From the NCBI GenBank assembly GCA_011390575.1, contig JAABSE010000011.1:102-64101 (forward strand): a stretch of 64,000 nt of DNA. The letters are read 5' to 3'. The position numbers were made by a program, and so were the translations under genes. Every line of letters starts with the position of its first letter. Position 1 is the first letter of the stretch. The stretch is from Sphingobacteriia bacterium (GTDB lineage Bacteria; Bacteroidota; Bacteroidia; Bacteroidales; UBA7960). This document shows, piece after piece, positions 27,383 to 54,558 of this stretch. Below the pieces are notes generated by a model. It searched no databases and had not been told where the DNA came from. It saw nothing but the letters and a program-made list of their open reading frames with translations.

Positions 27383-27418
27383 AAGCTTAGCCTTAGCCTA
27401 AGCCTCAGCCTAATCCTT
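27383..27418. repeat. hexanucleotide microsatellite (AGCCTN)x6 spanning the stop codon of the 1160-aa gene
   Basis: The sequence reads aagctt agcctt agccta agcctc agccta atcctt. The stop codon (27410-27412) lies in unit 5. Confidence 0.8.
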
Positions 27419-30400
27419 AAAAAGCGGGTCCGCACCAATAGTGCCCACCAGGTCTTCCAGGTATTCGGGCCGTTCCACTTTGGCAAGCTCAGCTTTGGCT
27501 CTGTCCAGTTTTTCTCCAAGATTAAGTTCGAGAGTAACCGGTTGGTTAACTTCACTGGACATAAACTCTTCCAGGTATCGGATGTGTTTTTTCCAGAGTG
27601 CAATATCTTTTTGCTGCTTCAGTTGGAGTCTTTCCTTGTACCAGTCGCTGTTGATGACATATTCTCTTGTAAACAATCCGCGGATTTCCGGATCATTGAT
27701 GTCCTTGTTGTTGTAATGTCCGTGTGCCATAATATGCAGCAGGGCTTTCAGCGGTGGTATTGCAGATTCTACGCTTCCATCAGCAAAATATTGCAAAGCC
27801 ACTTTTTGCTGTGCCTCACAGATATTTTTGATGCCATCCACAAAATCTTCCATGGACTGCATCTCAGGACGCAATACTTCTTTGGAGAAGATATTCATGG
27901 GTTCTTCAAATATTCTACCCAGGTATTTGAAGGCAAAAGCCTCGTTGATACGGTAGCCCAGGCGGCTGGCCAGAATTTTCTCTCCCTTGTGTTCAAAGTC
28001 GTCTATTTTGTCCAGCAAGCCTTCTTTGATGAGAAATTCTCCGGATTTCTCGTTGGCATCCAGTCGACACCATAACTCAGGGATGAGGATGCTAAGGTCG
28101 TGATCAAACCTGTATCTGGGGCCTATGTGACCGGCAGCACTTGAAAAAGCATTGTAGCCGGTAAGGATATAAGATACCAGAGCATTGTTAAGGTCTGTTG
28201 TGGGCACCAGCATATTGAAGGGGCCTTTGGTGAGGGCACCTTCGGAGCCTGCACCTGTAGTAGAAGGCGATTTGCCGGTAAGGCTGCACACAAAATCCAT
28301 AAATAATTCGGGCAGTTCCTGGTAATGGATGGGTGCATATACACTCAGAGGTCTGATTCCTTTCTTTTTATTAGAAGGGTTGTTGCGTCTGCCGGGCAAA
28401 ACATCGTTTACCGGGAACAAGGTCGGTTTGTCGAGAGGCACTTTTCGGGCAAAACGTACACCCACATGGGCCAGATAGCCATCTGCAGGGTTGTTAAACT
28501 CAGGTCTTGACTGCAGGTATCTTGGATTTTCAGAAATAGAACCATCAGCAAGCCGGCGGGGGTGAGAGGGCGAAATGAAATATACCCCGCTATCATCCTG
28601 TGCTCCATATTTAATCAGGTCTTTGATGGGTTGCGTGTATTTGTCAAACCCGATGGCTTCTTCAATAATTTCTTTCCCATCTTTTGCTGTCAGGGGCTGA
28701 TAATTGGTGGTAAAATTATTCATCTGCGACAGGTCGGCTTCAGCCTGTTTGTCATATCCACGGTTAATGGCTTCATCGGGCCGCTGGAAGAAGAGGTATT
28801 CACAGTTTTGTACAAACTTTACACTCTTGCGGGTAGAGCCCGGGCGTAAGTATTCCAGTTTGCTGGCCGGCAGGGTAAGGGTTGCAGAAATATCATCTTC
28901 CATCTGTACTTTCGCTGCTGCAATAAAGTCGGGACGCAATGAAAATACATTCCACGAACCATTCTCTTCATAACCAACCCTAAGGTAGGAAGTGCTGATT
29001 TTCCTGTTGTCAAACATCAGGGCGTGGCCCTTACGTCCGTTTACACGGTCAACAGAAAAATACTCATGCCAGTCCTTGTTCTGGTTACCCGAAGTAAGAC
29101 TAATACGCTTAATAAGCAATACCAGGGCTTTAACATGATCAGGTATATTTTTGAGGTATTTGTTGTAAGTAACGCTATATCCTCTGTAGGGGGTCAAAAG
29201 CTTGATGACGGAACCCAATGTTCGTTTGTTGTCAAGTAGTTTGCGCTTGTCAGAACCATGACGCGAGCGATCCTCCCAGCGGGTGCTGAAGTCATAATCA
29301 ATTACTTCCTGTGCTTTGGCAAAGTCTTTTTCAATATCATCAATAAAGAAGTTGCCATAAATAATTGCATTAAGCAATGATTTTGATATTTCAGATTTTC
29401 CCCCACCGGAAACGGTGCTGGGCTTGTGCAAAAAGCTTCCTTCTGCCTGGGTCACCACAAGGCGCCAATCCGGTGCAAAGGGGTGTTTTTCCATGTGCAC
29501 TTTAAATCCACAGGGCAGCACGTAATAATGGTTTTTCAGCAGATTGATTTGTCTTTCCTTTCCTTTGTAATCCCAGGAAACCGTGCTTTTATAAAGGTCA
29601 ATTCTGGCATTTTCGGGGACGTAAACCACCTCGGGCAATTGTTTGTCAATACCGTAATTTTCTTCCTTCAGGTGCATCATGGGTGCATAATGCTTTTTGA
29701 TATCCTCAAATGTGTAAGCATCGGGGAATCTTTCGGTTAAGACCTTTGCATCAAAATAGTTTCCCATATTTCTTCTGGAAAAGGCAAGTGCACCACCTGC
29801 ATGCTCCTCTTCACAATTACCGCTCAGGTTGGCTGCATAGGAAAGTTGGGTTTTTACTTCCTTCTTACTGTAACCAAAATAATTGTCGGCAATCAGGGTA
29901 ACCACCACACCGCTCTCGTCGCGGCAGGTAAGTTTAAAAGCTGTGCCATCGTTATAGTATTCATTTTCATCTTTCCAGCACATACCGTCTTTTCTCATCT
30001 TTTCACTTGCATCTTCCCAGTGTGGCAGTCCGATGTCTTTCTTTTTCATCTTAGTGAGATGGGGGGCAAGGATAACACAGCCGGTATGTCCCGACCAGTG
30101 CTCGGGGTCGAGTCCTGCATCGTTTTTGTGCAGATAGGGGTCTCCTGCATTGCCAAAAATGCTTTCTACAAAATCAAGGTTACTCACAAAAGCTCCGGGG
30201 GCAAAAAAGCGAAATTCAATGCTTTTCTGGGGCGAGTAATCTTTCACTTCAGGGCTTACCGTGGGGCGCAGCATAAGAGAAACAAATACTTTGGCCTTTT
30301 TTTCCTGTGAAGCAGTAAAAGGAAGAATCATGTAGTCTTCCGGTGGATTCAGGGCTGCATTAAGCAGATGGGCGAAAGCAATTTTGGGAACAGCCTTTTT

Positions 30401-30892
30401 GTCTTCAGGAATGGGCAGTCCCCCTTTTACAATATGAAACGACCCTTTGGTAGTGCGGCGGTCGCTGGCCGGATTGTGCAGAATGCCTTGGCGGATGCGG
30501 TAGGATTCGTAGTGGGGTGTACTGTAAGAATTTTTGTCGGGAGGAAGGCTTACTTCGCGTCCTATACCCGGCTTGTCAAGTACAAACGAGTCAAACGGTA
30601 TGCGAAGGTTTTTGTCGAATTCCACATCGCTCAGATAATTGTTGATGAAATTCTGGATGCGCTTGTCAACCGGGTTGATAACCTCTTTCGAGAGCAGGCG
30701 CATTTTTTCTTTATAATTGTTGAGAAGACTTTCGGCAAGGTTTACAAATTCCTGTTCTGTCATTCCGTCTTCCTGGATGTGGAGTTGCCCCTCAAAGATG
30801 GGTTGGCCCATGGATGCCAGTTTCATGTTAATATAGCGTATTACATCGCGACGGCGACGACCTGTAATAGGTTCTGTGGAATGATAGTTCAT
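27410..30892 (-). CDS. large cytosolic enzyme, candidate PPi-dependent phosphoenolpyruvate carboxykinase (PPi-PEPCK family)
   Basis: The uninterrupted 1160-aa ORF is certainly a gene. The function call rests on size (~130 kDa, as for the Entamoeba/Propionibacterium PPi-PEPCKs), a PEPCK kinase-1a-like loop VSGGGKSE (compare LSGTGKTT), the absence of motifs of other 1100-1200-aa enzymes (no Fe-S Cys clusters, no biotin/lipoyl site) and a central-metabolism neighbourhood. Confidence 0.4.
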   Translation of the reverse strand: MNYHSTEPITGRRRRDVIRYINMKLASMGQPIFEGQLHIQEDGMTEQEFVNLAESLLNNYKEKMRLLSKEVINPVDKRIQNFINNYLSDVEFDKNLRIPFDSFVLDKPGIGREVSLPPDKNSYSTPHYESYRIRQGILHNPASDRRTTKGSFHIVKGGLPIPEDKKAVPKIAFAHLLNAALNPPEDYMILPFTASQEKKAKVFVSLMLRPTVSPEVKDYSPQKSIEFRFFAPGAFVSNLDFVESIFGNAGDPYLHKNDAGLDPEHWSGHTGCVILAPHLTKMKKKDIGLPHWEDASEKMRKDGMCWKDENEYYNDGTAFKLTCRDESGVVVTLIADNYFGYSKKEVKTQLSYAANLSGNCEEEHAGGALAFSRRNMGNYFDAKVLTERFPDAYTFEDIKKHYAPMMHLKEENYGIDKQLPEVVYVPENARIDLYKSTVSWDYKGKERQINLLKNHYYVLPCGFKVHMEKHPFAPDWRLVVTQAEGSFLHKPSTVSGGGKSEISKSLLNAIIYGNFFIDDIEKDFAKAQEVIDYDFSTRWEDRSRHGSDKRKLLDNKRTLGSVIKLLTPYRGYSVTYNKYLKNIPDHVKALVLLIKRISLTSGNQNKDWHEYFSVDRVNGRKGHALMFDNRKISTSYLRVGYEENGSWNVFSLRPDFIAAAKVQMEDDISATLTLPASKLEYLRPGSTRKSVKFVQNCEYLFFQRPDEAINRGYDKQAEADLSQMNNFTTNYQPLTAKDGKEIIEEAIGFDKYTQPIKDLIKYGAQDDSGVYFISPSHPRRLADGSISENPRYLQSRPEFNNPADGYLAHVGVRFARKVPLDKPTLFPVNDVLPGRRNNPSNKKKGIRPLSVYAPIHYQELPELFMDFVCSLTGKSPSTTGAGSEGALTKGPFNMLVPTTDLNNALVSYILTGYNAFSSAAGHIGPRYRFDHDLSILIPELWCRLDANEKSGEFLIKEGLLDKIDDFEHKGEKILASRLGYRINEAFAFKYLGRIFEEPMNIFSKEVLRPEMQSMEDFVDGIKNICEAQQKVALQYFADGSVESAIPPLKALLHIMAHGHYNNKDINDPEIRGLFTREYVINSDWYKERLQLKQQKDIALWKKHIRYLEEFMSSEVNQPVTLELNLGEKLDRAKAELAKVERPEYLEDLVGTIGADPLFKD

Positions 30893-31213: not shown

Positions 31214-31244
31214 CAAAAAAAGGCCATCCTGTGAAGGACAGCCT
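31214..31244 (-). terminator. probable intrinsic terminator of gdh (minus strand)
   Basis: Imperfect stem ggccatcct / ggacagcc (31222-31230 / 31236-31243). The A8 run at 31214-31221 is a U-tract on the minus strand. Confidence 0.45.
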
Positions 31245-31268
31245 TTTGAATGAAAATATTTACAGGAG

Positions 31269-32606
31269 TTATATAACGCCCTGGTCTATCATTGCATCAG
31301 CAACTTTGATAAAACCTGCAACGTTAGAACCTTTTACATAGTTTACAAATCCAGTCTCATCTTTTCCATGTTTAACACATGCTTCATGGATGTTGATCAT
31401 GATCTGGTGCAGTTTTTCTTCTACCTCTTCTGCAGTCCAGTTCAGTTTCATGGCGTTCTGGGTTTGTTCCAGACCTGAAGTGGCAACACCACCTGCGTTG
31501 GAAGCTTTTCCGGGGCCGTAAAGAATTTTGGCTTTCAGGAAAATCTCCATGGCTTCAGGAGTACAAGGCATGTTGGCACCTTCTGAAACGCACATTACAC
31601 CATTGTTAACCAAAGTTTGAGCATCTTCAGCGTTGAGCTCATTCTGGATAGCGCAAGGAAGGGCAACATCAACCTTCACTTCCCACGGGCGCTTTCCTTC
31701 GAAGAACTGAGCGTTGGGGAATTCATAGGTGTAAGGCTTAACAATGTCCTGGTTGGAAGCACGCAGCTCAAGCAGGTAATCAATCTTCTCGCCACTGATA
31801 CCATCGGGGTCATAAACGTATCCGTCAGGTCCGCTGATGGTAACTACTCTTGCTCCCAGTTGGGTAGCTTTGATGATAGAACCCCATGATACGTTACCGA
31901 AACCAGATACAGAAACAATTTTTCCTTTCATGGATTCACCGCGGGTTTTGAGCATTTCTTCAGCGAAATAAACATTGCCAAAACCGGTAGCTTCAGGACG
32001 AATCAATGATCCACCCCATCCACGACCTTTGCCGGTGAATACGCCATGATGTTCGCCTACAAGCTTTTTGTACATGCCAAACATATATCCAATCTCGCGG
32101 CCACCAACGCCGATATCTCCGGCAGGAATATCTCTGTCGGGTCCGACATATTTGTAAAGCTCAGCCATGAAAGCCTGGCAGAAACGCATGATTTCAGCGT
32201 TGGATTTTCCTTTGGGGTCAAAATCGCTACCACCTTTTGCACCACCCATAGGCAGGGTAGTAAGACTGTTTTTGAAAATCTGTTCGAAACCGAGGAACTT
32301 CAAACCACCTTCTGTAACACTGGGGTGGAAACGACAGCCCCCTTTGTAAGGTCCAATGGCATTGTTGAACTGCACGCGGTAACCTCTGTTTACCTGTACG
32401 TTACCTTTGTCGTCCATCCACTGAACTTTGAATTTGATAACTCTGTCGGGTTCAATAATTCTTTCTATGATGTTTGCAGCTTCATACTTCGGGTTTTCTT
32501 TCACTACGTCTTCAATAGTTTCCAAAACCTCTTTCACTGCCTGAAGGAACTCAGGTTGACCGGGATTTTTTTTCTCCAGGTCGGCCATAATTTTTTCCAA
32601 GTTCAT
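31269..32606 (-). CDS. gdh: glutamate dehydrogenase (hexameric 50-kDa class), paralog 1
   Basis: 445 aa. Active-site Lys region [17 protein letters not shown]. Dinucleotide fold VSGFGNVSWG...VVTISGPDGYVYDPDG. Confidence 0.95.
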   Translation of the reverse strand: MNLEKIMADLEKKNPGQPEFLQAVKEVLETIEDVVKENPKYEAANIIERIIEPDRVIKFKVQWMDDKGNVQVNRGYRVQFNNAIGPYKGGCRFHPSVTEGGLKFLGFEQIFKNSLTTLPMGGAKGGSDFDPKGKSNAEIMRFCQAFMAELYKYVGPDRDIPAGDIGVGGREIGYMFGMYKKLVGEHHGVFTGKGRGWGGSLIRPEATGFGNVYFAEEMLKTRGESMKGKIVSVSGFGNVSWGSIIKATQLGARVVTISGPDGYVYDPDGISGEKIDYLLELRASNQDIVKPYTYEFPNAQFFEGKRPWEVKVDVALPCAIQNELNAEDAQTLVNNGVMCVSEGANMPCTPEAMEIFLKAKILYGPGKASNAGGVATSGLEQTQNAMKLNWTAEEVEEKLHQIMINIHEACVKHGKDETGFVNYVKGSNVAGFIKVADAMIDQGVI

Positions 32607-32783: not shown

Positions 32784-35700
32784 TCAATTCAAAGGTTTGC
32801 AAACAATTCCCTTTTTCTTTCTACCGTCAATTTTTACAATTGCCGGTTGCGAAAAACGGATGTGCCGTACAAATTCATCCTCAAAAATTGCAGGTTGCTG
32901 GTTAAGAAATTTTACATCATAAAATCCCTCTTTGATAAAAGGGTTGATGGTAAAATATCCCACATTGAAAGATGTCAGATTCTGGAAGAAATGGGTTCCC
33001 TGGCTTGGGTCAATCTGAAAGTTCTTCAGACCTGCTTCAATAATGAGCCTGGCGGCAGAAATCTGCGACCATTTTACCGGTACTCCCAGCCATGGATCGC
33101 TGGAACCCCAGCGGCCCGGGCCAATAAGAATGTAGTTATCCTTGCGTTGGGTAAAACCGGTATTCAGCTTGTCAATGGTTTGAGCGATGGTTTTGGTATG
33201 GGCAGGGTCGAAAACATCCGGTTTTACATACACCACATCCTTCACATTGTCTACAATGCCATTGCCCAGTGCCTGTTCACTGTATATGATGGTTTCTTCT
33301 TCCTTGTGTTCTTCAAGGTCAATCTGATTTTTTTCCTGGGTTTCGACTACGGGCCGGATTTGCAGGAAATGAAATATCCGGGGTTGGTTTTCAGGCGTGT
33401 CAAGATTGACCGAGAACTCAATTTCCACCTGGTTGTTCATTTCCATCTGACCGATCTTCAGGATTTTTTGCAGAATTTCTGACAAAGGGAAGGAGTTGTA
33501 CTTGAGGATGTTGGAGAATGTAATGATCTTTTTTCCTCCTTCATAGATGCCATCGCGAATAATCTGGTCATGGTAGTCGAAGGTTGATGCAACAAATTTG
33601 AGGGCTTTGTCATTTTCTGCATGCTTGATGCGCAATTTGAGCAGGTTAATGGTTTCATCTACCGATGAGTGAAATTTCTCCGGGTCCAGGTCCAATGCAT
33701 AAAATTCTTTCTGGCTGTCGGTAAGTGCAAGCTCAGGCACCGAAAGTTGTAATACCTTTTGGGGATATTTGGGGCAGAACCTCATAGAAATTCCCCCTTC
33801 CACAATGGTTTTCCCCAGACCGAAAGCGATGTTGGCAATGCCATCTTCATATTTCTCGGGTTCTATAGGATAAAAATTGATAGAGCGTGCCACACCTGAT
33901 ATGGCAGGATAGAATCGGTTTCCATAGCTTCTGCCGGATATTTCCTGGATTACCACACCCATTTTTTCCTCATCAATCACATTGGAAGTGGCCGCAATGT
34001 AAGCTTTACTTTCTTTATAGAAAACAGAAGCATAAACGCTTTTGATGGCCTGTTCCAGCTGGAAGGTTCTTATTCGGTCATCGTGATGGTTGTTAGGAAT
34101 CATAAAAGTGGAATAGACCCCGGCAAAGGGCTGATAATGACTGTCTTCCAGTAAGCTGGAAGAGCGAACGGCAAGGGGGGATTTGATGGCTTCGCAAATT
34201 TCGGCAACATACTTGCGCATGCGCGAAGGAGTAATGGCATTGCTGAATTTCTCAATGACTTCTTCGTCGGAAACATCGGACAGTGCAAAATCATACAGGT
34301 TATTGTCCTCCATAAATTCATCAAAAAGGTCGGTAGTGAGCACAACGGTTCTGGGGATGGTTACCATGGCATCTTCCCAGTGAAACATCAGTTTGTATTT
34401 ATTAATGAAGGAGTCAATAAATGCCAGACCGCGGGCTTTGCCACCCAGCTGGCCGTCGCCCAGGCGGGTAAAGATAGCATATTCATCTATGTGGCTGGCG
34501 ATAATGCCTCGGCCCTTGGTTTTCCGGTAATTGGCAATGGTGTCAATCAGATAGCTCCTGATTTCTTCAATGTTGTTGAAATCATCCATGCTCTTCTGGG
34601 CAAATACATTGGCAATGGAAAACAAGGCCCTGGCCTTGAGCCAGCGGGAGAAGTGGTTGTTGGAAACATGATAAATGAGAGATTTGGAGTCTAGTCTGGA
34701 AATTTTTACCTGCAGCGAGTGCAGATTGTTGGCCCTGTCAATCTCCACATCTCTTTCGGGATCTCTGAACACAAAATCACCAAACCCATAGTTTTCCTTA
34801 ATGTAATGCTTGAGCTCCAGGAGCAGGGTTTGCGAATATTTATTGATGAAGTTTACGCCCAGTTCTTCCATCACAGCATAATCCCAGTCATCGGAAGATT
34901 GGAGCAAAACAGGCATTTTTGAGCCTTCATCTCTTATAAGCCGGGCCAGTTTGATGCCGGCTTCCTTGTCTTTTTCCCCATCTCTGTAATAAGATATGTC
35001 GGAAATGACCCCGAGCAGGTTATGTTTGTATTTATGGTACAATTCTACAGCATCATCAAAGGTTTTTGCCAGCAAAATCTTGGGTCGTGCCCGCATGCGA
35101 AGGGTTTTGCGGTGCTCGTTGAGCCCTTCGGTCATCAGTTCGTTGGTTTGTTCGAAAATTGCTTTGTAAATCGTGGGCAGGTACGAGGAATAGTAACGGA
35201 TAGAATCCTCCACCAGCAGTATGGCTTGCACTCCTTTTTGTTCTACATCATAATCGGCGTTCATCTTGTCTTCCAGGAGCTTGATGATGGCCAGCAACAA
35301 ACCGGGGTTGCCCAGCCAGCAAAATACGTAATCAATGGAACTCAGGTCCTCATTGGCCAGCTTCAGGGTTACCTCCCTTGAAAAATGGGTGAGTACCACA
35401 ATGGGAATATCCGTATAGCGTCGCTTTACCTTTTTGGCCATTTCAAAAGCATCTATCTTACCCACGTTGAGCATGGTAATCACCAGGTCAAACTTCTTCT
35501 TCTCCAGCAGCTCGAAGGCTTTTTCCGATGAGCTTGCCTGTGTGAACTGCGGAGGATAACGCAGGTTCTTGGAAGTGTACTCCAGGAAAATCTTTTCATT
35601 GATCCTGCCGTCTTCTTCCAGCATGAAAGCATCATAGTTGGAGCAGATGAGCAAAACATTGATGATTCGCTCCTGCATCAACTCCTGGTATGAAATTTCA

Positions 35701-35786
35701 TTGAACTCGTGCCTGTCGGTGGAGAAGAGTTCGTTGTATTTGTATTTTGACCGGGATTCTTTTAAGTGTGTTGTGTTATCTTCCAT
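32784..35786 (-). CDS. pseudo-receiver + receiver + PEP/pyruvate-binding-type (PPDK_N ATP-grasp) domain protein with an uncharacterised C-terminal domain
   Basis: 1000 aa. REC2 motifs are ILLVEDS...LLGVISDISY...PVLLQSS...FINK. ATP-grasp motifs are GGKARGLAF, LAVRSSSLLEDSHYQPFAGVYSTF, MGVVIQE, ISGVARSINFYP and EIEFSVNLD. The C-terminal domain has GPGRWGSSDPWLGVPVKWSQIS and DPSQGTHFFQNLTSFNVGYF. Confidence 0.8.
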   Translation of the reverse strand: MEDNTTHLKESRSKYKYNELFSTDRHEFNEISYQELMQERIINVLLICSNYDAFMLEEDGRINEKIFLEYTSKNLRYPPQFTQASSSEKAFELLEKKKFDLVITMLNVGKIDAFEMAKKVKRRYTDIPIVVLTHFSREVTLKLANEDLSSIDYVFCWLGNPGLLLAIIKLLEDKMNADYDVEQKGVQAILLVEDSIRYYSSYLPTIYKAIFEQTNELMTEGLNEHRKTLRMRARPKILLAKTFDDAVELYHKYKHNLLGVISDISYYRDGEKDKEAGIKLARLIRDEGSKMPVLLQSSDDWDYAVMEELGVNFINKYSQTLLLELKHYIKENYGFGDFVFRDPERDVEIDRANNLHSLQVKISRLDSKSLIYHVSNNHFSRWLKARALFSIANVFAQKSMDDFNNIEEIRSYLIDTIANYRKTKGRGIIASHIDEYAIFTRLGDGQLGGKARGLAFIDSFINKYKLMFHWEDAMVTIPRTVVLTTDLFDEFMEDNNLYDFALSDVSDEEVIEKFSNAITPSRMRKYVAEICEAIKSPLAVRSSSLLEDSHYQPFAGVYSTFMIPNNHHDDRIRTFQLEQAIKSVYASVFYKESKAYIAATSNVIDEEKMGVVIQEISGRSYGNRFYPAISGVARSINFYPIEPEKYEDGIANIAFGLGKTIVEGGISMRFCPKYPQKVLQLSVPELALTDSQKEFYALDLDPEKFHSSVDETINLLKLRIKHAENDKALKFVASTFDYHDQIIRDGIYEGGKKIITFSNILKYNSFPLSEILQKILKIGQMEMNNQVEIEFSVNLDTPENQPRIFHFLQIRPVVETQEKNQIDLEEHKEEETIIYSEQALGNGIVDNVKDVVYVKPDVFDPAHTKTIAQTIDKLNTGFTQRKDNYILIGPGRWGSSDPWLGVPVKWSQISAARLIIEAGLKNFQIDPSQGTHFFQNLTSFNVGYFTINPFIKEGFYDVKFLNQQPAIFEDEFVRHIRFSQPAIVKIDGRKKKGIVCKPLN

Positions 35787-35836
35787 TGAAAAAAAGCGTA
35801 TTGGAGTTTCTTACTAAGGTTTTTCTGCCTGTAATT

Positions 35837-38800
35837 TTATATTTGCTGTTTTTGCTTTTTTGATTCATCTTCTGCATCAGGTTCTTCTGCTTCGTTGTTG
35901 AAATAAATCAGGGAAGCCCTGTTTTTACCATCCATAATTATTTCCAGGGGTTTGTCAAACCTCACGTGACGGAAATAACGTGTGGTGTTGATGGTTTCGC
36001 ACTCTTCAAGCTTCTCCCAGTTGATGTAATCAATCAAGTCGTTGTGTTTTACTGAAAAGTACCCTACATTCATTGAAATTACATTGTGAAAGAAGTGTGA
36101 TCCCAGCGATGCATCCAGGGGAAAGTCTTCCATGCTTACTTCTACTATGATTTTTGCGTTGGAAATGTGCGACCATGCCACAGGGATTCCAATAAATCTG
36201 TCGCGGGTACCCCAGCGTCCAGGGCCCACGAGGATGTACTTCCTGTTTTCTTCAACCATTTTGCGGTTGAGCATCTCAATTTCGTCACGCATTTTTTCGG
36301 TTTTGAGCTTATCGAATTTTTCGGGATCAATGTAAATTACATCACAGATATCTTCAATGATGCCGTTGCCCATTCCGTTTTCAGAATACAGAAGCAGTCG
36401 TTCGTTGTCGATGACATCAAGATTAATTTCGTTGGTAATGATATTTTTAATCAGGGGCTTGATTTGCAACAGGTAAAACGAGGCCCTGCCTTCCTGATCT
36501 TTGTTCAAATCTACCGCAAATTCAATTTCAATAGGCGAACCCATGGCTTCTGAAACAATATCGAGAATTACCTCAATGGTTTTAGCCATAGGCATATAAT
36601 CATATTTGAGAATATTGGCAAAGTTAATCACCCTGGGCCCGGGCTGGGTTAAACCTGGGATGGTTCTCTCACTGGAATAATCGTAAACCGAAGCAGAATG
36701 TTTGATGGTGCCGTGTTTTTCTGCCTGCGATATTTCAAGTTTGCACAGTGCAGCGTCTTCCCCTTCCAGCAGGTTCATTTTTTTTCGGGCCATATCAATG
36801 GCGTAAAAGTGTAGTTGTGAATTTTTAAACAGATCCTTTGGGGTGTATATTTCCAATTGCGGATGTACCGGCGAAAAACGAAATGTCTTTTCTCCCTCCA
36901 CAACATATTTTCCCAGGCCCACAGCGGCCACAGCAAAACCTTCATCGGGCTTCATGTAGGAAAAAGGGTAGAAATTATAGGACTGTGCCACTCCACTGAT
37001 ATGTGGGTAGAAGTAATTTTCGTAAAGGTTTCCGGCTACCTCCTGAATGATTACAGCCATTTTTTCTTCTTCAATTTTGTAGTTTACCGCCTTGAAGTAA
37101 GATTGTGCTGTGGGGGAAAAGATGGACGCAAATACCAGTTTGATGGCATTCATGGTTTGTTTGAGGCGTTCGTTGGGATCGGGGTGGTTGTTGGGTAGCA
37201 GGAAGGTATCAAAAATGCCGGCAAAGGGTTGCATCAGCGAGTCTTCAAAAAGACTGGAAGAGCGTATGGCCAGCGGCCTGGTAATGAGAGAAAGATAAAC
37301 TTTCAGCCGCTTCACAAGGGTAGGGGATAAGTCACCTTCCACAAAGTGCTCTTTGATGATTTGATAGTCCTGCTCCTCGTATATTTTATCGTATAACTTG
37401 TTTCTCTGGATAAACTGCTCAAACTCTTCGGCACCGATAATGGAAGTTTTGGGAGCTCTGATGTTGATATCGGGTACAATTTCTTTAAAAGAAAAGTTGT
37501 TGATGAGCATATTGATGAAAGCAAGCCCTCTCCCTTTGCCTCCCAGCGAACCGGGTGCCAGGCTAACCACATTGGTTTCATCGAGCAACAGCGATTCTTC
37601 AAAATTTACAACCTTTCCTTTTTGTCGCTCCTGGATGCAACTTTCAATGATGTCAATCATGTATTTTCTTACTGCGCCCGGGCATTCAAAATCTTCCACT
37701 TTGAGCGGCTTAATCTTTTTGGCGATTTGTATTTCTCCCCGTGCCATGAGCCAGTGTGAGAAATGGTTCTTTCGGGCATGGTATATCAATGATTTTTCGG
37801 GTATGGAACGCAGGTGCGACTGAAACTCCTTCATCGAGCGTGCCACCGCAATCTCTTTGCGCCCCTCCTCATCTCTGTATACAAAGTTCCCAAAGCCCAG
37901 GTAATAATTGATAAAACTCTGCAAATCCTGTTTGAGGGTTTCGGAGTTTTTATTGATAAAAGTTGACTTGAGCAGGTAGGCATTTTGAGCATTTTCAATA
38001 TCCGAAGATTGCAACACAACAGGCAGGTCCGGCATTTGATCTCTTACATAGCTCACCAGGCTTAATCCGGCATGCTCATCCAGTTTTCCGTTTTTCTCAA
38101 ACTTTACATCTGATATAAGGCACAAAAGATTTTCTCGGTATTGGTCGAACAAGGTGAGGGCCTCAGCATAATTAGAAGCAAGAATAATCTTGGGCCTGAC
38201 GCGCATCTTCAACAGCTTATGGGTTTCATCGGAATTGACCTCTTCAATGAGTTGCTGGGTTTGCTCTATGACAATGGAGTAAAGAATGGGCAGATACCTT
38301 GAGTAATACTTTGCCGAATCTTCTACCAGCAATATTACTCTCACCATACCTATGCTTATGTCATTCTCTACATTCATGCGGTCTTCGATAAACTTAACCA
38401 TGGCAAGAAAAACGTTGGAATCTCCGTTCCAGACGAAAATTTTGTCAATGGAGCTGATGTTTTTGTTGCCATCTTCAAACATACCAATGTCACTGTTATT
38501 GTTGAGCAGCAAAAAAATCGGGAGGTTGTGGTATATCTGCTTAATGATACGGCTGAGTTGGATAGGGGTGTTTTTATCCACCCCCATCATTACAATGACC
38601 ATGTCAAAGTGCTTTTCCTGCAGTTTTTCCAGGGCTTCTTCGGGGGTGGATACCCCTGTTATGCGCGGTGCAGAAGATAAATTCAGCTGATAATATTCTC
38701 CTCTTACCTGTTCGAAGAACCGCCCTTCCTGTTCAATAATGTATGCGTCATAAAGATTGGCTACCAGGAGGATTTCCCTTACCTTATTGGGCATCAGGTC

Positions 38801-39424
38801 ATGGTAAATATCTCTGTCAGAGTGGTGCTTGATCAGGAATTTTTGCAACAACTGGCGGCTCATGGCTGCGTGTGTCCTTTCCGATTCGGGCTTTTCCTGA
38901 TCTTTCTGCATCGTACTTTTTTGCAGCAAATCTTTTCCGATAAAAGTATTGAGGTAACCCGAAATGAGCGAACTGAGGTTGTTGATCAAATCTCTTTCTT
39001 CCATCAGAAACGGGCCTTCGTCCTGTTGGGTATGTTCTTTCAGATAGAATACCTCAATGGAGCCCTCTTTTCCGTCAATGGTTTCAAAGGATTTTCGCTG
39101 GCACCAGGAGGTTTCCTTGAATTTGGCACTGCTGACAAACGAGTCTTTTCCATATTTGATTCGTGCAATGGCATCATCAGGGTATTGCCATGCAGCCGGA
39201 AGAATTTTGGCTATTTCGCCGAGCATTTCCACAATAGATGCACCTTCACGACGCAGTATATTGGTGGTTTTGTTAATGGCTCCCAGCTCCTTGAGTCTCT
39301 CCCGCTTTTCAGTCAGGATTTTCTCAATCTCTTCCTGGCTTATGGTAAACCGGGTCAGGTCTTGAGGATTAATATCTTTTGAAGTAGAATCTTCTTTGCC
39401 GGGAACAAAAGCACTGTCTTTCAT
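35837..39424 (-). CDS. paralog of the previous gene with an extra N-terminal sensor-like module
   Basis: 1195 aa. N-terminal module ...ILPAAWQYPDDAIARI...EGPFLMEERDLINNL... REC2 motifs are VILLVEDS...LLCLISDVKF...PVVLQSS...FINK. ATP-grasp motifs are GGKGRGLAF, LAIRSSSLFEDSLMQPFAGIFDTF, MAVIIQE, ISGVAQSYNFYP and EIEFAVDLN. The C-terminal domain has GPGRWGTRDRFIGIPVAWSHIS and DASLGSHFFHNVISMNVGYF. Confidence 0.8.
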   Translation of the reverse strand: MKDSAFVPGKEDSTSKDINPQDLTRFTISQEEIEKILTEKRERLKELGAINKTTNILRREGASIVEMLGEIAKILPAAWQYPDDAIARIKYGKDSFVSSAKFKETSWCQRKSFETIDGKEGSIEVFYLKEHTQQDEGPFLMEERDLINNLSSLISGYLNTFIGKDLLQKSTMQKDQEKPESERTHAAMSRQLLQKFLIKHHSDRDIYHDLMPNKVREILLVANLYDAYIIEQEGRFFEQVRGEYYQLNLSSAPRITGVSTPEEALEKLQEKHFDMVIVMMGVDKNTPIQLSRIIKQIYHNLPIFLLLNNNSDIGMFEDGNKNISSIDKIFVWNGDSNVFLAMVKFIEDRMNVENDISIGMVRVILLVEDSAKYYSRYLPILYSIVIEQTQQLIEEVNSDETHKLLKMRVRPKIILASNYAEALTLFDQYRENLLCLISDVKFEKNGKLDEHAGLSLVSYVRDQMPDLPVVLQSSDIENAQNAYLLKSTFINKNSETLKQDLQSFINYYLGFGNFVYRDEEGRKEIAVARSMKEFQSHLRSIPEKSLIYHARKNHFSHWLMARGEIQIAKKIKPLKVEDFECPGAVRKYMIDIIESCIQERQKGKVVNFEESLLLDETNVVSLAPGSLGGKGRGLAFINMLINNFSFKEIVPDINIRAPKTSIIGAEEFEQFIQRNKLYDKIYEEQDYQIIKEHFVEGDLSPTLVKRLKVYLSLITRPLAIRSSSLFEDSLMQPFAGIFDTFLLPNNHPDPNERLKQTMNAIKLVFASIFSPTAQSYFKAVNYKIEEEKMAVIIQEVAGNLYENYFYPHISGVAQSYNFYPFSYMKPDEGFAVAAVGLGKYVVEGEKTFRFSPVHPQLEIYTPKDLFKNSQLHFYAIDMARKKMNLLEGEDAALCKLEISQAEKHGTIKHSASVYDYSSERTIPGLTQPGPRVINFANILKYDYMPMAKTIEVILDIVSEAMGSPIEIEFAVDLNKDQEGRASFYLLQIKPLIKNIITNEINLDVIDNERLLLYSENGMGNGIIEDICDVIYIDPEKFDKLKTEKMRDEIEMLNRKMVEENRKYILVGPGRWGTRDRFIGIPVAWSHISNAKIIVEVSMEDFPLDASLGSHFFHNVISMNVGYFSVKHNDLIDYINWEKLEECETINTTRYFRHVRFDKPLEIIMDGKNRASLIYFNNEAEEPDAEDESKKQKQQI

Positions 39425-39627: not shown

Positions 39628-41013
<1,386 letters not shown>

Positions 41014-41869: not shown

Positions 41870-42604
41870 TCATGAATATCGTTGCATCATTACCTTAAGG
41901 TATCTGTCTCTGATGGCTGTAAGTTGATCCATAGTGAGGTTTTCTCTGTATATACGCACCAGCTCAGTTATCTTTCCTTTTTCCATGAAAGCAGCCCGGG
42001 CAGCATCAAAAAACTGCAGTGTGGTGTCGTGTTTTACCTCTGTGGTCAGGACTTTAAAGTCATCCCAGCTCACATAACGGGGAATGATGAAGTAGGCTCT
42101 GTGGGGACGGTCATTTTCCTTGTAAACCCCTTCAAGTTCCTGCATGGGTGTAAAATGCAGAAACTTGTTCAACTGAATGATTCCCATCTGATTGGTGAGC
42201 TTGCGGGAACTTTTTTTCAACTTAATCCCCATTTCATTAAACATTTCCTGGATGGCATGTATCTGGTTGTAACGTTTGAGGTTATGCATTCTTATTACAT
42301 GGTAATTATCTGTTGCAATGAAAATATTTCCCGGTGTGGCGTCCAGTGCGGGATAACAATTTGATCGGATGGTTTCCAGGGCCCTGAAAATGGTTTCATA
42401 GGGGTAGAACTGATCGAGCACCCAATACAAATGCTCTGGTTTTTCATCTTTGGGTTGATCCGCGTAATATCCATAAAAAGGGGCAACCGCTTCCAGGATC
42501 ATGATGTTCAGGTCCAGATTTTCGTCAGAGATACATGAGAGAGGTTCTTCCTTGGTAATCCAACCGTACCGTTCAATTGCATTCACAGATTTTGTAGTTT
42601 CCAT
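41870..42604 (-). CDS. hypothetical cytosolic protein
   Basis: Clean 244-aa ORF with normal codon composition. I recognise no motif. Confidence 0.55.
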   Translation of the reverse strand: METTKSVNAIERYGWITKEEPLSCISDENLDLNIMILEAVAPFYGYYADQPKDEKPEHLYWVLDQFYPYETIFRALETIRSNCYPALDATPGNIFIATDNYHVIRMHNLKRYNQIHAIQEMFNEMGIKLKKSSRKLTNQMGIIQLNKFLHFTPMQELEGVYKENDRPHRAYFIIPRYVSWDDFKVLTTEVKHDTTLQFFDAARAAFMEKGKITELVRIYRENLTMDQLTAIRDRYLKVMMQRYS

Positions 42605-51516: not shown

Positions 51517-54219
51517 ATGTTGTTGACAAGTTTTTCTTCTCTCGCATATTCCTGTCTGATTCCGGGTGTATCCATCCCTAAGTTATTGATGTCCGAAAAC
51601 TTTGCCATGACCGGTTTTTTTCAATGGCAATTCATGCAAATCCCGGCTTTTTTCAATGCTTTCTTTTGGTATGCTTTGCTGATATTATTATTGTTGGTTT
51701 CAGTTTTTTTACTGGGAAAATTGACATGGAGTTGGGCATTGAAAAGAGAAGTAGATAAAAAAATCAGACAACTACATCAGCAATTTATTGAAGAAAATAA
51801 TTTAAAAGGAGCCAAAGAACAGAGTGATCCAGGCAATGATTTCTTTTCTCCTGAAGCCATTGCCTTCATCAAACAAAGAAACGATAATCCTTCCTTAGCT
51901 GCAGTTAAGGCTGAAGCTCCCTTTTTCAACCCCCATCCAACGAGTTTATCAGATAATCGTTACAGAGAATTTGCACAATTGCTTCCCGATTTGGTTTTTG
52001 AAACCGATGCGGAAGGAAACCTGCTTTTTGTCAATCAGGCAGGTTTTGATATTCTGGGGTTTTCTCCTGAAATTCTGAAACAGGAAAAAATCAATGTTTT
52101 TGATTTTGTCGATCCACGTGATGTCGATAAGGCCAGAGAGAATTTTCAACGGATTATTGCCAACAAAAGAGCAGAGGATTCTGAATACAGAATAATTGAT
52201 GGACAAAAGGTCGTGATGACTGTTTTGTCTTATGCATTGCCGGTTATCCGCAACGGACGGGTAGAAGGATTAAGAGGATTGCTGGTAGATATTTCACAAA
52301 GGAAAAAGAACGAAGAAACCATACGGATTCTTAAGGACATTGTGAGCCATGTAGGATTGGGAATCAATGTTTTTCGACTGGCAGACTCTGCCAGCCCTGT
52401 GCGTTTTATTCTGGAAATGGTTAATGAAGCCTCAGAGAAATTCATGCGGTTTTCCAAACCTGAAAATATTGGGAAAAGCCTTGATGATATATCCCCTCTG
52501 CTTCGCAAACAAAATCTGCACGAATACCTCAACCAGGCCATCGTTTCCAATGCATCTGTAGAAGTTGATGATTTTGTTTACCAACCCGATCCTACCATAG
52601 AAGCTAAAATACTTAATCTGAAAATCTTTCCTTTGCCACAAAACCGGGTGGTATTGCTCATGGAAGACATTTCAGCAAGAAAAAAAGCAGAACAGCAATC
52701 CCAGATGACCAATTTTGGGCTGGAGCATGCGGGGGATATCATTTTATGGGTGGATGAAAACGCCCGGTTTTTATATGCCAACGAAACGGCCTGCCAGAAA
52801 TACGGAAACACTCGCGAAGAATTACTGGGAATGACAGTGACAGATGTGGATTCGAGGGTAACCATGATGCAATGGTACGAATTGATCCAGATACTTGAGA
52901 ACAAGCCTTCTCTCACCATGGAGTCCATTCATAAAACCAGCGGCGGCGATACGTTTCCTGTGGAAATTTCTATCAATAAATTTGTTTTCGATGGTAAGGC
53001 TTATTTCTTCACTTTTGTACGCGATATCAGCGAAAGAAAGAAAAATGATGAACTGGAACAGAATATCCAGGTTGCCCGAAAATCTGCTGCGCTAAAGCAA
53101 CAGTTTCTGGCTAATATGAGCCACGAAATTCGTACTCCCATGACCGGAATTATGGGAATGACTTCGTTGCTCATGCGAACCAACCTTAGCCCTGCACAAC
53201 AGGAATATGTGAGAAATATCAAAATTTCATCCGAGAACCTTCTCAATATTATCAACGATGTGCTGGATTTGAGCAAAATTGAGGCAGGCAAGATGGAGCT
53301 CAAGCCCAACAGGATATCTTTTGGTGAGCTTGTAGATGAAATCCATGAGATTTTCCAGCACCAGGCTCAGAGCAAAGGAATCTTGTTTACCACATCTATC
53401 GATCCGCTGATTCCTGCCAATATCATAGTCGACGACCAGCGACTAAAGCAGGTGCTGAACAACTTATTGTCCAACGCCTTTAAATTTACCGATGAAGGAG
53501 AAATATCAGTGGCCTTTGGTGTAGAATACAAGCGTGAAAAAGAGCTTTTGCTTTCCTGCCTGGTTAAAGATACAGGAATGGGTATCGGGACAGAAAATCA
53601 GCGGCAGATATTTGAAAAATTCACCCAGATTGACACTTCCCTCATCAGACCTTTCGAAGGAACAGGCCTGGGCCTTGCCATATGCCGTGAACTTACTCAG
53701 CTCATGGGAGGGGAAATCAGCGTTAGCAGTGAGCTGGGAAAAGGAAGTACCTTCTCTTTTACCTTTAAAGCCCAGTACGACAAAAGCGACAATGAAACCT
53801 CTGCCGCTGCCAAGGTAAGGGACTTTAATGATTTGAAATTAAATGTACTTCATGTTGAAGATAAGCTCCTTAACCAAAAAGTGGTGGGTTTTATTCTTTT
53901 CAATGCCGGCTGCAATGTAGACTTTGTGAAAAACGGACAGGAAGCCATTGATATTTACCAACCGGGCAGGTACGACATCATTCTTATGGATATTCAAATG
54001 CCTGTTATGGATGGAATTTCTGCCTACAAAGAACTTAAACGCATACATGGCAGTAGCTTGTGTCCGGTCATTGGGCTTAGCGCCAATGCCTTGGAAGGAG
54101 ATGCCCAGAAATACATAGCCCAGGGTCTGGATGATTATATCGTAAAACCGTTCCCTCCCAGTGTGCTATATGATAAACTTAATAAATGGGCAGGCAAACT
54201 CAAGCCTGGCAGATCATAG
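51517..54219 (+). CDS. hybrid sensor histidine kinase (TM, PAS x3, HisKA, HATPase_c, REC)
   Basis: H-box FLANMSHEIRTPMTGIMG, N-box LLSNAFKFT, G-boxes DTGMGI and GTGLGLAI. C-terminal receiver ...VLHVEDKLLNQ...YDIILMDIQMPVMDG... Confidence 0.9.
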   Translation: MLLTSFSSLAYSCLIPGVSIPKLLMSENFAMTGFFQWQFMQIPAFFNAFFWYALLILLLLVSVFLLGKLTWSWALKREVDKKIRQLHQQFIEENNLKGAKEQSDPGNDFFSPEAIAFIKQRNDNPSLAAVKAEAPFFNPHPTSLSDNRYREFAQLLPDLVFETDAEGNLLFVNQAGFDILGFSPEILKQEKINVFDFVDPRDVDKARENFQRIIANKRAEDSEYRIIDGQKVVMTVLSYALPVIRNGRVEGLRGLLVDISQRKKNEETIRILKDIVSHVGLGINVFRLADSASPVRFILEMVNEASEKFMRFSKPENIGKSLDDISPLLRKQNLHEYLNQAIVSNASVEVDDFVYQPDPTIEAKILNLKIFPLPQNRVVLLMEDISARKKAEQQSQMTNFGLEHAGDIILWVDENARFLYANETACQKYGNTREELLGMTVTDVDSRVTMMQWYELIQILENKPSLTMESIHKTSGGDTFPVEISINKFVFDGKAYFFTFVRDISERKKNDELEQNIQVARKSAALKQQFLANMSHEIRTPMTGIMGMTSLLMRTNLSPAQQEYVRNIKISSENLLNIINDVLDLSKIEAGKMELKPNRISFGELVDEIHEIFQHQAQSKGILFTTSIDPLIPANIIVDDQRLKQVLNNLLSNAFKFTDEGEISVAFGVEYKREKELLLSCLVKDTGMGIGTENQRQIFEKFTQIDTSLIRPFEGTGLGLAICRELTQLMGGEISVSSELGKGSTFSFTFKAQYDKSDNETSAAAKVRDFNDLKLNVLHVEDKLLNQKVVGFILFNAGCNVDFVKNGQEAIDIYQPGRYDIILMDIQMPVMDGISAYKELKRIHGSSLCPVIGLSANALEGDAQKYIAQGLDDYIVKPFPPSVLYDKLNKWAGKLKPGRS

Positions 54220-54474: not shown

Positions 54475-54549
54475 GGTGGCTATAGCTCAGCAGGTTAGAG
54501 CATCAGATTGTGGTTCTGAGGGTCGTGGGTTCGAATCCCATTAGCCACC
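54475..54549 (+). tRNA. tRNA-His (anticodon GTG) with genomically encoded G-1; no encoded CCA
   Basis: Hand-folded cloverleaf. G-1 plus acceptor GTGGCTA/TAGCCAC plus C73. D stem gctc/gagc. Anticodon stem tcaga/tctga with loop ttGTGgt. T arm gtggg-ttcgaat-cccat. Confidence 0.9.
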
Positions 54550-54558
54550 CACCTCCAA

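Follow-up and report, generated by a model that had tools for sequence, protein, structure and literature searches.

Glutamate dehydrogenase (GDH) stands where carbon and nitrogen metabolism meet. Glutamine synthetase is under a textbook covalent control cascade, and we know of no comparable dedicated control machinery for bacterial GDH. Here we analyze two adjacent genes, for which the working names RPK1 and RPK2 were coined in this analysis, in a stretch of 64,000 nucleotides (the window) from a Bacteroidales genome (Sphingobacteriia bacterium, UBA7960; GenBank assembly GCA_011390575.1, contig JAABSE010000011.1, positions 102 to 64,101, forward strand). The genes stand between two GDH genes, and their products combine receiver-like domains with an ATP-grasp of the dikinase family and a new C-terminal domain. 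We conclude that RPK1 and RPK2 represent, in Bacteroidales, an uncharacterized, widespread enzyme pair that is genetically tied to gdh.

The closest described enzymes are the dikinases PpsA and PPDK. Like these, the RPKs have a PPDK_N domain with all signature motifs and a second domain straight after the LQ.RP strand. Unlike them, they have neither the swivel phosphohistidine domain (PEP-utilizers, PF00391) nor the TIM barrel (PEP-utilizers_C, PF02896), and they add receiver and sensor modules at the N terminus. PF00391 gave no match to the whole proteins at E ≤ 0.1 or to the isolated C termini at E ≤ 10. PF02896 also gave no match, and the proteins end ∼170 aa past the ATP-grasp. An earlier interpretation made from the DNA alone (the sequence-only reading) held that these proteins cannot be canonical dikinases. 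The profile scores point the same way: the NCBIfam phosphoenolpyruvate (PEP) synthase models reach 28–50 bits against cutoffs of 598–883, and the equivalog models for PEP synthase, rifampin phosphotransferase (RPH) and the prodigiosin ligase PigC align to no more than a portion of the ATP-grasp (∼50 bits, with cutoffs of 600–1300). RPH, PigC/RedH and the L-glutamine kinase Cj1418 have the ATP-grasp in common with the RPKs and use it to phosphorylate non-pyruvate substrates; PigC, RedH and RPH are the best partial NCBIfam matches. The RPKs differ from these enzymes in their receivers and in their linkage to gdh. To our knowledge, RPH, PigC/RedH and glutamine kinase all keep the swivel His domain, none has receivers and none is linked to gdh. 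Cj1418 is a dikinase relative that acts on a nitrogen-assimilation metabolite (PMC11800397).

A tandem of receiver and pseudo-receiver N-terminal to an enzymatic output is also found in PleD, where phosphorylation of the receiver alters its contacts with the pseudo-receiver and drives dimerization and activation (PMC12632262). The RPKs depart from PleD in that the pseudo-receiver comes first, the receiver has an insertion of ∼25 residues in α1 and escapes Pfam, an ATP-grasp rather than GGDEF serves as output, and two paralogous regulators stand in tandem. The likeness to GlnE/GlnD is a functional analogy only, that of a sensor-equipped, ATP-using modifier tied to a central ammonia-assimilation enzyme. 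The partner protein found in other phyla (described below) has an NTP_transf_2/Polbeta domain, a comparison made at the level of a Pfam nucleotidyltransferase match, whereas the RPKs of the window have no nucleotidyltransferase. Public annotations of the family read "PEP/pyruvate-binding domain-containing protein", "phosphoenolpyruvate synthase", "response regulator" or "CheY-like chemotaxis protein". The ATP-grasp belongs to a known family; we know of no description of the domain that accompanies it, of this class of response-regulator output or of the operon linked to gdh.

The sequence-only reading had described two adjacent genes on the same strand, 1000 and 1195 aa long and separated by 50 nt, and the open reading frames (ORFs) lie exactly where it put them. 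The four parts that it assigned to both products (pseudo-receiver, receiver, PPDK_N and a new C-terminal domain) are recovered by Pfam, AlphaFold and conservation.

35837–39424, minus strand: RPK2, 1195 aa; sensor module, pseudo-receiver, receiver, helical linker, PPDK_N ATP-grasp and new C-terminal domain (ORF list, Pfam, BLASTP paralogy).
32784–35786, minus strand: RPK1, 1000 aa; pseudo-receiver, receiver, helical linker, PPDK_N ATP-grasp and new C-terminal domain (ORF list, Pfam, AlphaFold).

The two proteins are 38% identical across 978 aa (BLASTP, E = 0). The full-length AlphaFold model of RPK1, computed from a 49-sequence alignment, has a predicted local distance difference test score (pLDDT) of 86.5 and a predicted template modeling score (pTM) of 0.79. 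The gene order in the window is gdhB <> RPK2 > RPK1 > gdhA.

31269–32606, minus strand: gdhA, glutamate dehydrogenase, 177 nt 3′ of RPK1 on the same strand (Pfam ELFV_dehydrog; NCBIfam PRK14030 and PRK09414, both over cutoff).
39673–41013, plus strand: gdhB, second glutamate dehydrogenase gene, 248 nt from RPK2 and pointing away from it (Pfam; NCBIfam PRK09414, 767 bits against a 536-bit cutoff).
31218–31247, minus strand: terminator-like hairpin of 13 pairs followed by a T run, 22 nt past the gdhA stop; likely end of an RPK2-RPK1-gdhA transcript.

The position of gdhA downstream of RPK1 is kept among RPK1 orthologs, and gdhB occupies the same position in close relatives. Co-transcription of RPK2, RPK1 and gdhA is plausible, because a strong hairpin follows gdhA and the gaps between the three genes hold no terminator-like site comparable to it. 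A sigma-70 promoter scan was uninformative (17 sites against 16.8 expected, with a model that does not cover Bacteroidota promoters). An Rfam/ARAGORN scan of the window detected no regulatory RNA or riboswitch near the gdh/RPK locus; its sole match was a tRNA-His (GTG) at 54476–54550 on the plus strand.

The strongest evidence for a tie to gdh comes from other phyla, in which the core of the RPKs (ATP-grasp plus C-terminal domain) occurs without receivers. In Acidobacteriota, Eisenbacteria, Zixibacteria, Planctomycetota and Ignavibacteria, it forms a stand-alone "short" protein of ∼585 aa. Six loci from a core-only search were examined (Terriglobales, Eisenbacteria, Zixibacteria, Planctomycetota, Ignavibacteria and one unassigned), and all six have an operon of the order gdh > short > long. 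The long partner is a PPDK_N protein of 920–1069 aa. Because the start of its gene overlaps or abuts the short gene, the arrangement suggests that short and long proteins may form a stoichiometric complex. A convergent gene for a 286-aa Metallophos protein is present at five of the six loci; a search of PDB sequences and NCBIfam gave no match that would tell protein phosphatase from nucleotide phosphodiesterase.

A metagenome scan returned 80 further loci, over which each feature was counted wherever the locus was testable. The gdh gene lies immediately upstream of the short core in 66 of 74 loci and the long partner downstream of it in 65 of 67. The long partner's N-terminal module was found in 64 of 67, its C-terminal nucleotidyltransferase in 35 of 38, and the Metallophos gene in 26 of 38. 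From N to C terminus, the long protein consists of a sensor-like module, an intact ATP-grasp, the same C-terminal domain as the RPKs (E 1e-27 to 1e-33 to the domain family, with GPGRWGS and SFGTHFFQD) and an NTP_transf_2/Polbeta nucleotidyltransferase. At one Eisenbacteria locus (L084), a third PPDK_N paralog of 780 aa adjoins the Metallophos gene. Linkage to gdh, which the sequence-only reading had proposed to look for across Bacteroidota, thus recurs far beyond that phylum; for the core family without receivers, it represents the ancestral arrangement in at least five other phyla.

The cores of RPK1 and RPK2 are 35–42% identical to the short type (six loci) and 27–30% identical to the long type, and the short-core signature residues are all common to RPK1 and RPK2. 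Because both cores are nearest to the short type, the Bacteroidales pair arose by duplication of a short-type core, with both copies gaining the tandem of pseudo-receiver and receiver. Compared with the long partner, RPK2 has the sensor module and lacks the nucleotidyltransferase. Judged by this homology, it appears to carry the long partner's sensor module on top of the receiver tandem.

38951–39349, minus strand: RPK2 sensor-like module, residues ∼26–158, LPAAWQYPDD...EGPFLMEERDLINNL (homology to the N terminus of the long partner).

This module has no Pfam match. RPK2 residues ∼26–158 are 31–35% identical to the N terminus of long gdh-linked partners from other phyla (E 1e-16 to 1e-19). Elsewhere the module occurs alone or fused to PAS, GerE, NTP_transf_2 or HisKA/HATPase. 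The sequence-only reading had described it as a type seen on many sensor kinases; such proteins do occur, yet histidine-kinase fusions make up only three of the 51 matches, and the main home of the module is the N terminus of the long partner in the gdh-linked system.

Relatives were compared at 80 loci from species-representative genomes, all of them metagenome-assembled and mostly Bacteroidales, again with counts over testable loci. The RPK2 > RPK1 tandem, whose conservation the sequence-only reading had left as a point to check, is kept in 59 of 73 loci, down to 55% identity. Where there was enough flanking sequence, 44 of 52 loci have gdh (21) or a KorAB-like oxidoreductase (23) within two genes. 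The latter, of the OAFO/KorAB type, is a 2-oxoacid:ferredoxin oxidoreductase with two subunits, encoded on the same strand immediately upstream; we infer it to be specific for 2-oxoglutarate. A 1231-aa fusion of GltD-like Fer4_20/Pyr_redox_2 modules with molybdopterin-oxidoreductase/NuoG-like modules (cluster 22) lies three to four genes from the RPK genes at L014, L023 and L029 and recurs near the RPK locus at seven loci; two smaller conserved genes (∼173 and ∼592 aa) precede it.

The C-terminal domain is the part of the core with no described counterpart.

32787–33293, minus strand: RPK1 C-terminal domain, residues 832–1000; GPGRWGS at 889–895 and SQGTHFF with H932 (AlphaFold, Foldseek, profile searches).
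35897–36397, minus strand: RPK2 C-terminal domain, residues 1010–1176; GPGRWGT and LGSHFFHN with H1110 (domain-family profile, E 3.8e-72).

The sequence-only reading could assign this domain to no family, and we could not either, although its size is ∼170 aa rather than the ∼200 aa given there. The isolated C termini of RPK1 and RPK2 have zero Pfam matches even at E ≤ 10, and a profile search of PDB sequences returned only chance-level matches to longin domains (E 0.01). The isolated RPK1 domain was modeled by AlphaFold with a pLDDT of 95.3 and a pTM of 0.91. When this model was compared with the PDB by Foldseek, the best match had an E of 0.08, with TM-scores up to 0.29, to thioredoxin-fold proteins; BFVD held nothing below E 0.01, and TM-scores against PDB and BFVD were all ≤0.34. 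In a search of 1.84 billion representative proteins, the domain was present in 1741 clusters. It followed PPDK_N in every case examined, in stand-alone and fused proteins, among them ∼580-aa proteins made up of PPDK_N and the C-terminal domain alone and two-copy proteins of 1500–1650 aa.

The motifs GPGRWG[ST].D..LG[IV]PV.W and S.G.HFF.N do not vary. When RPK1 and RPK2 are compared with two other family types, G-x-G-R-W-G-[ST], LG, E917 and S-x-G-x-H-F-F are kept in all of them. A Rossmann dinucleotide-binding loop was considered, since GPGRWG fits GxGxxG, and was rejected because no helix follows the loop in the model. A degenerate swivel phosphohistidine domain was also disfavored, on the lack of a Pfam match at E ≤ 10, the chance-level PDB-profile matches and the lack of Foldseek support. 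The C-terminal domain sits exactly where dikinases carry their swivel phosphohistidine domain and has no detectable relation to it. The claim that the proteins lack a phosphohistidine or PEP/pyruvate domain therefore holds as far as homology goes (no match to PF00391 or PF02896) and does not extend to a non-homologous phosphocarrier, for which the invariant H932 is a candidate. This residue is kept in 49 of 49 sequences and opens a helix (932–939) behind a loop of lower confidence in the model. The phosphohistidines of HPr, enzyme I, PPDK and succinyl-CoA synthetase are likewise located at helix N termini.

The ATP-grasp that precedes this domain is complete in both proteins.

33351–34472, minus strand: RPK1 PPDK_N ATP-grasp, residues 439–812 (Pfam PF01326, E 1.8e-36, profile positions 3–326 of 328).
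36452–37549, minus strand: RPK2 PPDK_N ATP-grasp, residues 626–991 (Pfam PF01326, E 2.3e-38; ATP-grasp motifs intact).
34515–34775, minus strand: RPK1 helical linker, residues 338–424, weakly DUF5752-like (Pfam DUF5752, E 0.005, under cutoff).

The motifs GGK, RSSS..ED, [IV]E[IL]EF and LQ.RP are invariant. In the 49 sequences, RPK1 residues K450, R541, S542–S544, E547, D548, Q614, E788, E790 and Q809 do not vary, and R811 is present in 48. The PPDK/PEP-synthase-type ATP-grasp of each subunit is predicted from these residues to be catalytically intact. In the RPK1 model, the linker between receiver and ATP-grasp has two strands and then five helices; its counterpart in RPK2 reaches 24.4 bits with Pfam DUF5752, against a 23-bit cutoff.

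Both proteins begin their shared part with two receiver-like domains.

35238–35660, minus strand: RPK1 pseudo-receiver, residues 43–183; M105 at the acceptor position, W157 near the Lys position (Pfam Response_reg, AlphaFold, residue census).
38351–38776, minus strand: RPK2 pseudo-receiver, residues ∼217–358; M279 at the acceptor position (Pfam, sub-cutoff; aligns with the RPK1 pseudo-receiver).
34791–35225, minus strand: RPK1 receiver, residues 188–332; E193, D194, D263, S297 and K316 (profile against PDB, AlphaFold, conservation).
37901–38338, minus strand: RPK2 receiver, residues ∼363–508; acceptor D439 (aligns with the RPK1 receiver; catalytic residues conserved in the family alignment).

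RPK1 residues 43–183 and 188–332 each adopt the (βα)5 fold in the AlphaFold model. Pfam Response_reg detects the first domain in RPK1 (residues 80–140, E 2e-8, over cutoff) and falls short of its cutoff in RPK2 (residues 253–307, 24.9 bits against 30.2). Among 49 family members, the acceptor-equivalent position 105 holds M, T, F, L or V, with D or E in none, and a near-invariant Trp stands near the Lys position; on both counts this domain is a pseudo-receiver. Pfam Response_reg finds no match to the second receiver in either RPK1 or RPK2. In the model, this domain has a two-helix insertion in α1, of the length given above, and a hairpin after β3; these make it divergent and explain why Pfam misses it. 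The family profile of the domain matches RssB and other receiver structures with D263 on the acceptor Asp (E 0.006), and E193, D194, D263, S297 and K316 are each kept in at least 90% of 49 sequences. The second receiver thus appears to be divergent but intact, and is predicted to be phospho-competent. A Foldseek search with the full-length RPK1 model returned PleD (E 3e-7) and tandem-receiver proteins as its top matches.

No histidine kinase is encoded next to the pair, in the window or at the 80 related loci, and among the window ORFs scanned there is none within ∼12 kb, in agreement with the sequence-only reading. The sole kinase seen in the window is a 900-aa hybrid histidine kinase (51517–54219, plus strand; PAS-PAS-HisKA-HATPase_c-receiver), 12 kb from RPK2. 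It is a candidate phosphodonor for the orphan RPK receivers.

We propose, tentatively and with a probability of roughly 40%, that the RPK pair is a signal-gated system for ATP-dependent phosphotransfer (or pyrophosphotransfer) at the 2-oxoglutarate/glutamate node. The ATP-grasp would load a phosphoryl or pyrophosphoryl group from ATP, for which the most plausible acceptor would be the invariant His (H932 in RPK1, H1110 in RPK2). The group would then move to a target at the 2-oxoglutarate/glutamate node, most likely the co-encoded GDH, whose activity would be switched. In other phyla the pair would work with a ligand-sensor module and a nucleotidyltransferase, and the Metallophos enzyme would reverse the mark. 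A kinase-like enzyme, a phosphoesterase, a nucleotidyltransferase and sensor domains are the make-up of covalent-modification cycles such as that of GlnE/GlnD for glutamine synthetase. In Bacteroidales, activity would instead be gated by the tandem of pseudo-receiver and receiver on each subunit. D263 (RPK1) or D439 (RPK2) would be phosphorylated by a non-adjacent kinase or a small phosphodonor, and phosphorylation may rearrange the tandem and change oligomerization, as in PleD. The sensor module of RPK2 would provide an additional ligand input.

Several observations weigh against this proposal. The link between the pair and GDH is one of gene order only, and about half of the Bacteroidales loci have the 2-oxoacid:ferredoxin oxidoreductase in the place of gdh, an arrangement easier to reconcile with a shared metabolic node than with GDH as the substrate. 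Neither a Metallophos gene nor a nucleotidyltransferase was found among the window ORFs scanned, so that a cycle would need to be closed by other means here. The invariant His might instead act as a base in catalysis, bind a ligand or coordinate a metal, and searches with Pfam, PDB profiles and Foldseek revealed no relation of the C-terminal domain to any phosphocarrier domain. A literature search found no paper on the RPK architecture, the C-terminal domain or the gdh-linked operon, and so lends the proposal no support.

The proposal can be extended to an unrecognized, pan-bacterial covalent control of GDH, a counterpart of GlnE/GlnD. An ATP-grasp pair with a new-fold phosphohistidine carrier (joined in most phyla by a nucleotidyltransferase) would write the mark, a metallophosphoesterase would erase it, and Bacteroidales would have rewired the system to two-component signaling. 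We regard this wider version as speculative and unlikely to hold in full.

The alternative that survives best is that the RPKs are small-molecule kinases or ligases, which we consider doubtful but a serious contender. The ATP-grasp would (pyro)phosphorylate a metabolite of the node bound by the C-terminal domain, with glutamate, glutamine, 2-oxoglutarate or one of their derivatives as candidates. GDH would either provide or use up this substrate, and the role of the receivers would be limited to adjusting flux. The parallel is with dikinase relatives that act on rifampin, glucans, prodigiosin precursors and the glutamine amide, and it gains from the fact that the best partial NCBIfam matches are the non-pyruvate relatives. 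The neighbors also come from one pathway segment, with the KorAB-like oxidoreductase, GDH and, in the window, a pyrophosphate (PPi)-dependent PEP carboxykinase. By analogy with the steps that follow Cj1418 (PMC11800397), the nucleotidyltransferase of the long partner could activate a phosphorylated product. Against this, all characterized small-molecule members known to us keep the swivel His domain that the RPKs lack. Biosynthetic enzymes seldom combine dedicated sensor and receiver domains on both subunits with a paired phosphoesterase, and conservation around the cluster extends to no other pathway genes.

The missing cognate kinase would be explained if the RPKs formed a self-contained phosphorelay, in which the group passes from the ATP-grasp to the C-terminal His and on to the receiver Asp (D263/D439), in cis or between the paralogs. 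The phospho-acceptor site of the receiver is complete, the His is invariant and the ATP-grasps of dikinases make phosphohistidine. The core with the same invariant His is, however, ancestral and widespread without receivers, which means that supplying a receiver cannot be the main function of the His; the scheme also leaves the output of the system undefined. We give it little credence.

Equally improbable, in our judgment, is a nucleotide sensor that is non-catalytic or hydrolyzes ATP slowly, its ATP-grasp reading the adenylate energy charge and binding GDH or another partner allosterically, without covalent transfer. An adenine-phosphoribosyltransferase-like subunit confers AMP control on the GDH of Thermus. 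Strict linkage to gdh without other pathway genes, and the multiple sensor modules, would suit such a role. The invariance of every catalytic ATP-grasp residue, in both subunits and over large evolutionary distances, argues instead for chemistry, and the conserved phosphoesterase partner implies a phosphorylated species.

That the C-terminal domain is a highly diverged swivel domain, making the RPKs ordinary dikinases with a third, substrate-binding module in trans, is just as unlikely: it does occupy the swivel position directly after the LQ.RP end of the ATP-grasp, with a Gly-containing β-hairpin at its start and an invariant [ST]-H at a helix start, but PF00391 fails to match it even at the loosest threshold used, no dikinase, enzyme I or RPH chain is among the top 50 Foldseek PDB matches listed (none of 602 matches reaches E 0.001), and, on a reading of the sequences, LG[IV]PV precedes the His here, whereas in PEP-utilizers it follows.

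The remaining features of the window concern the surroundings of the locus. Downstream of gdhA lies the PPi-dependent PEP carboxykinase (27410–30892, minus strand, 1160 aa), which is recognized by no Pfam or NCBIfam model and matches PDB entries 6k31 and 8e1u end to end (E = 0); its position after gdhA is confined to the closest relatives (L001, L006, L010 and L078). On the other side, a 244-aa protein without a Pfam or NCBIfam match (41870–42604, minus strand) lies beside a SpoU methylase and gdhB, an arrangement kept in the closest relatives (L005 and L007). The G+C content is 0.36–0.41 across the first 14 kb of the window and 0.41–0.50 thereafter, with the boundary near the 3′ end of a gene for a 1462-aa subtilase sorted by the type IX secretion system (13123–17511).

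What emerges is a conserved gene set of unknown function, consisting of a short core, a long core with sensor and nucleotidyltransferase, and a phosphoesterase, that is tied to gdh in at least six phyla. Its C-terminal domain is modeled with very high confidence and is without a structural relative, and the RPKs represent a new enzymatic output class for response regulators. Older work is said to have described a reversible inactivation of GDH in Bacteroides and trans-acting genes downstream of gdhA, though our search for the inactivation work found nothing. The RPK pair is a candidate for this reported GDH-inactivating activity.

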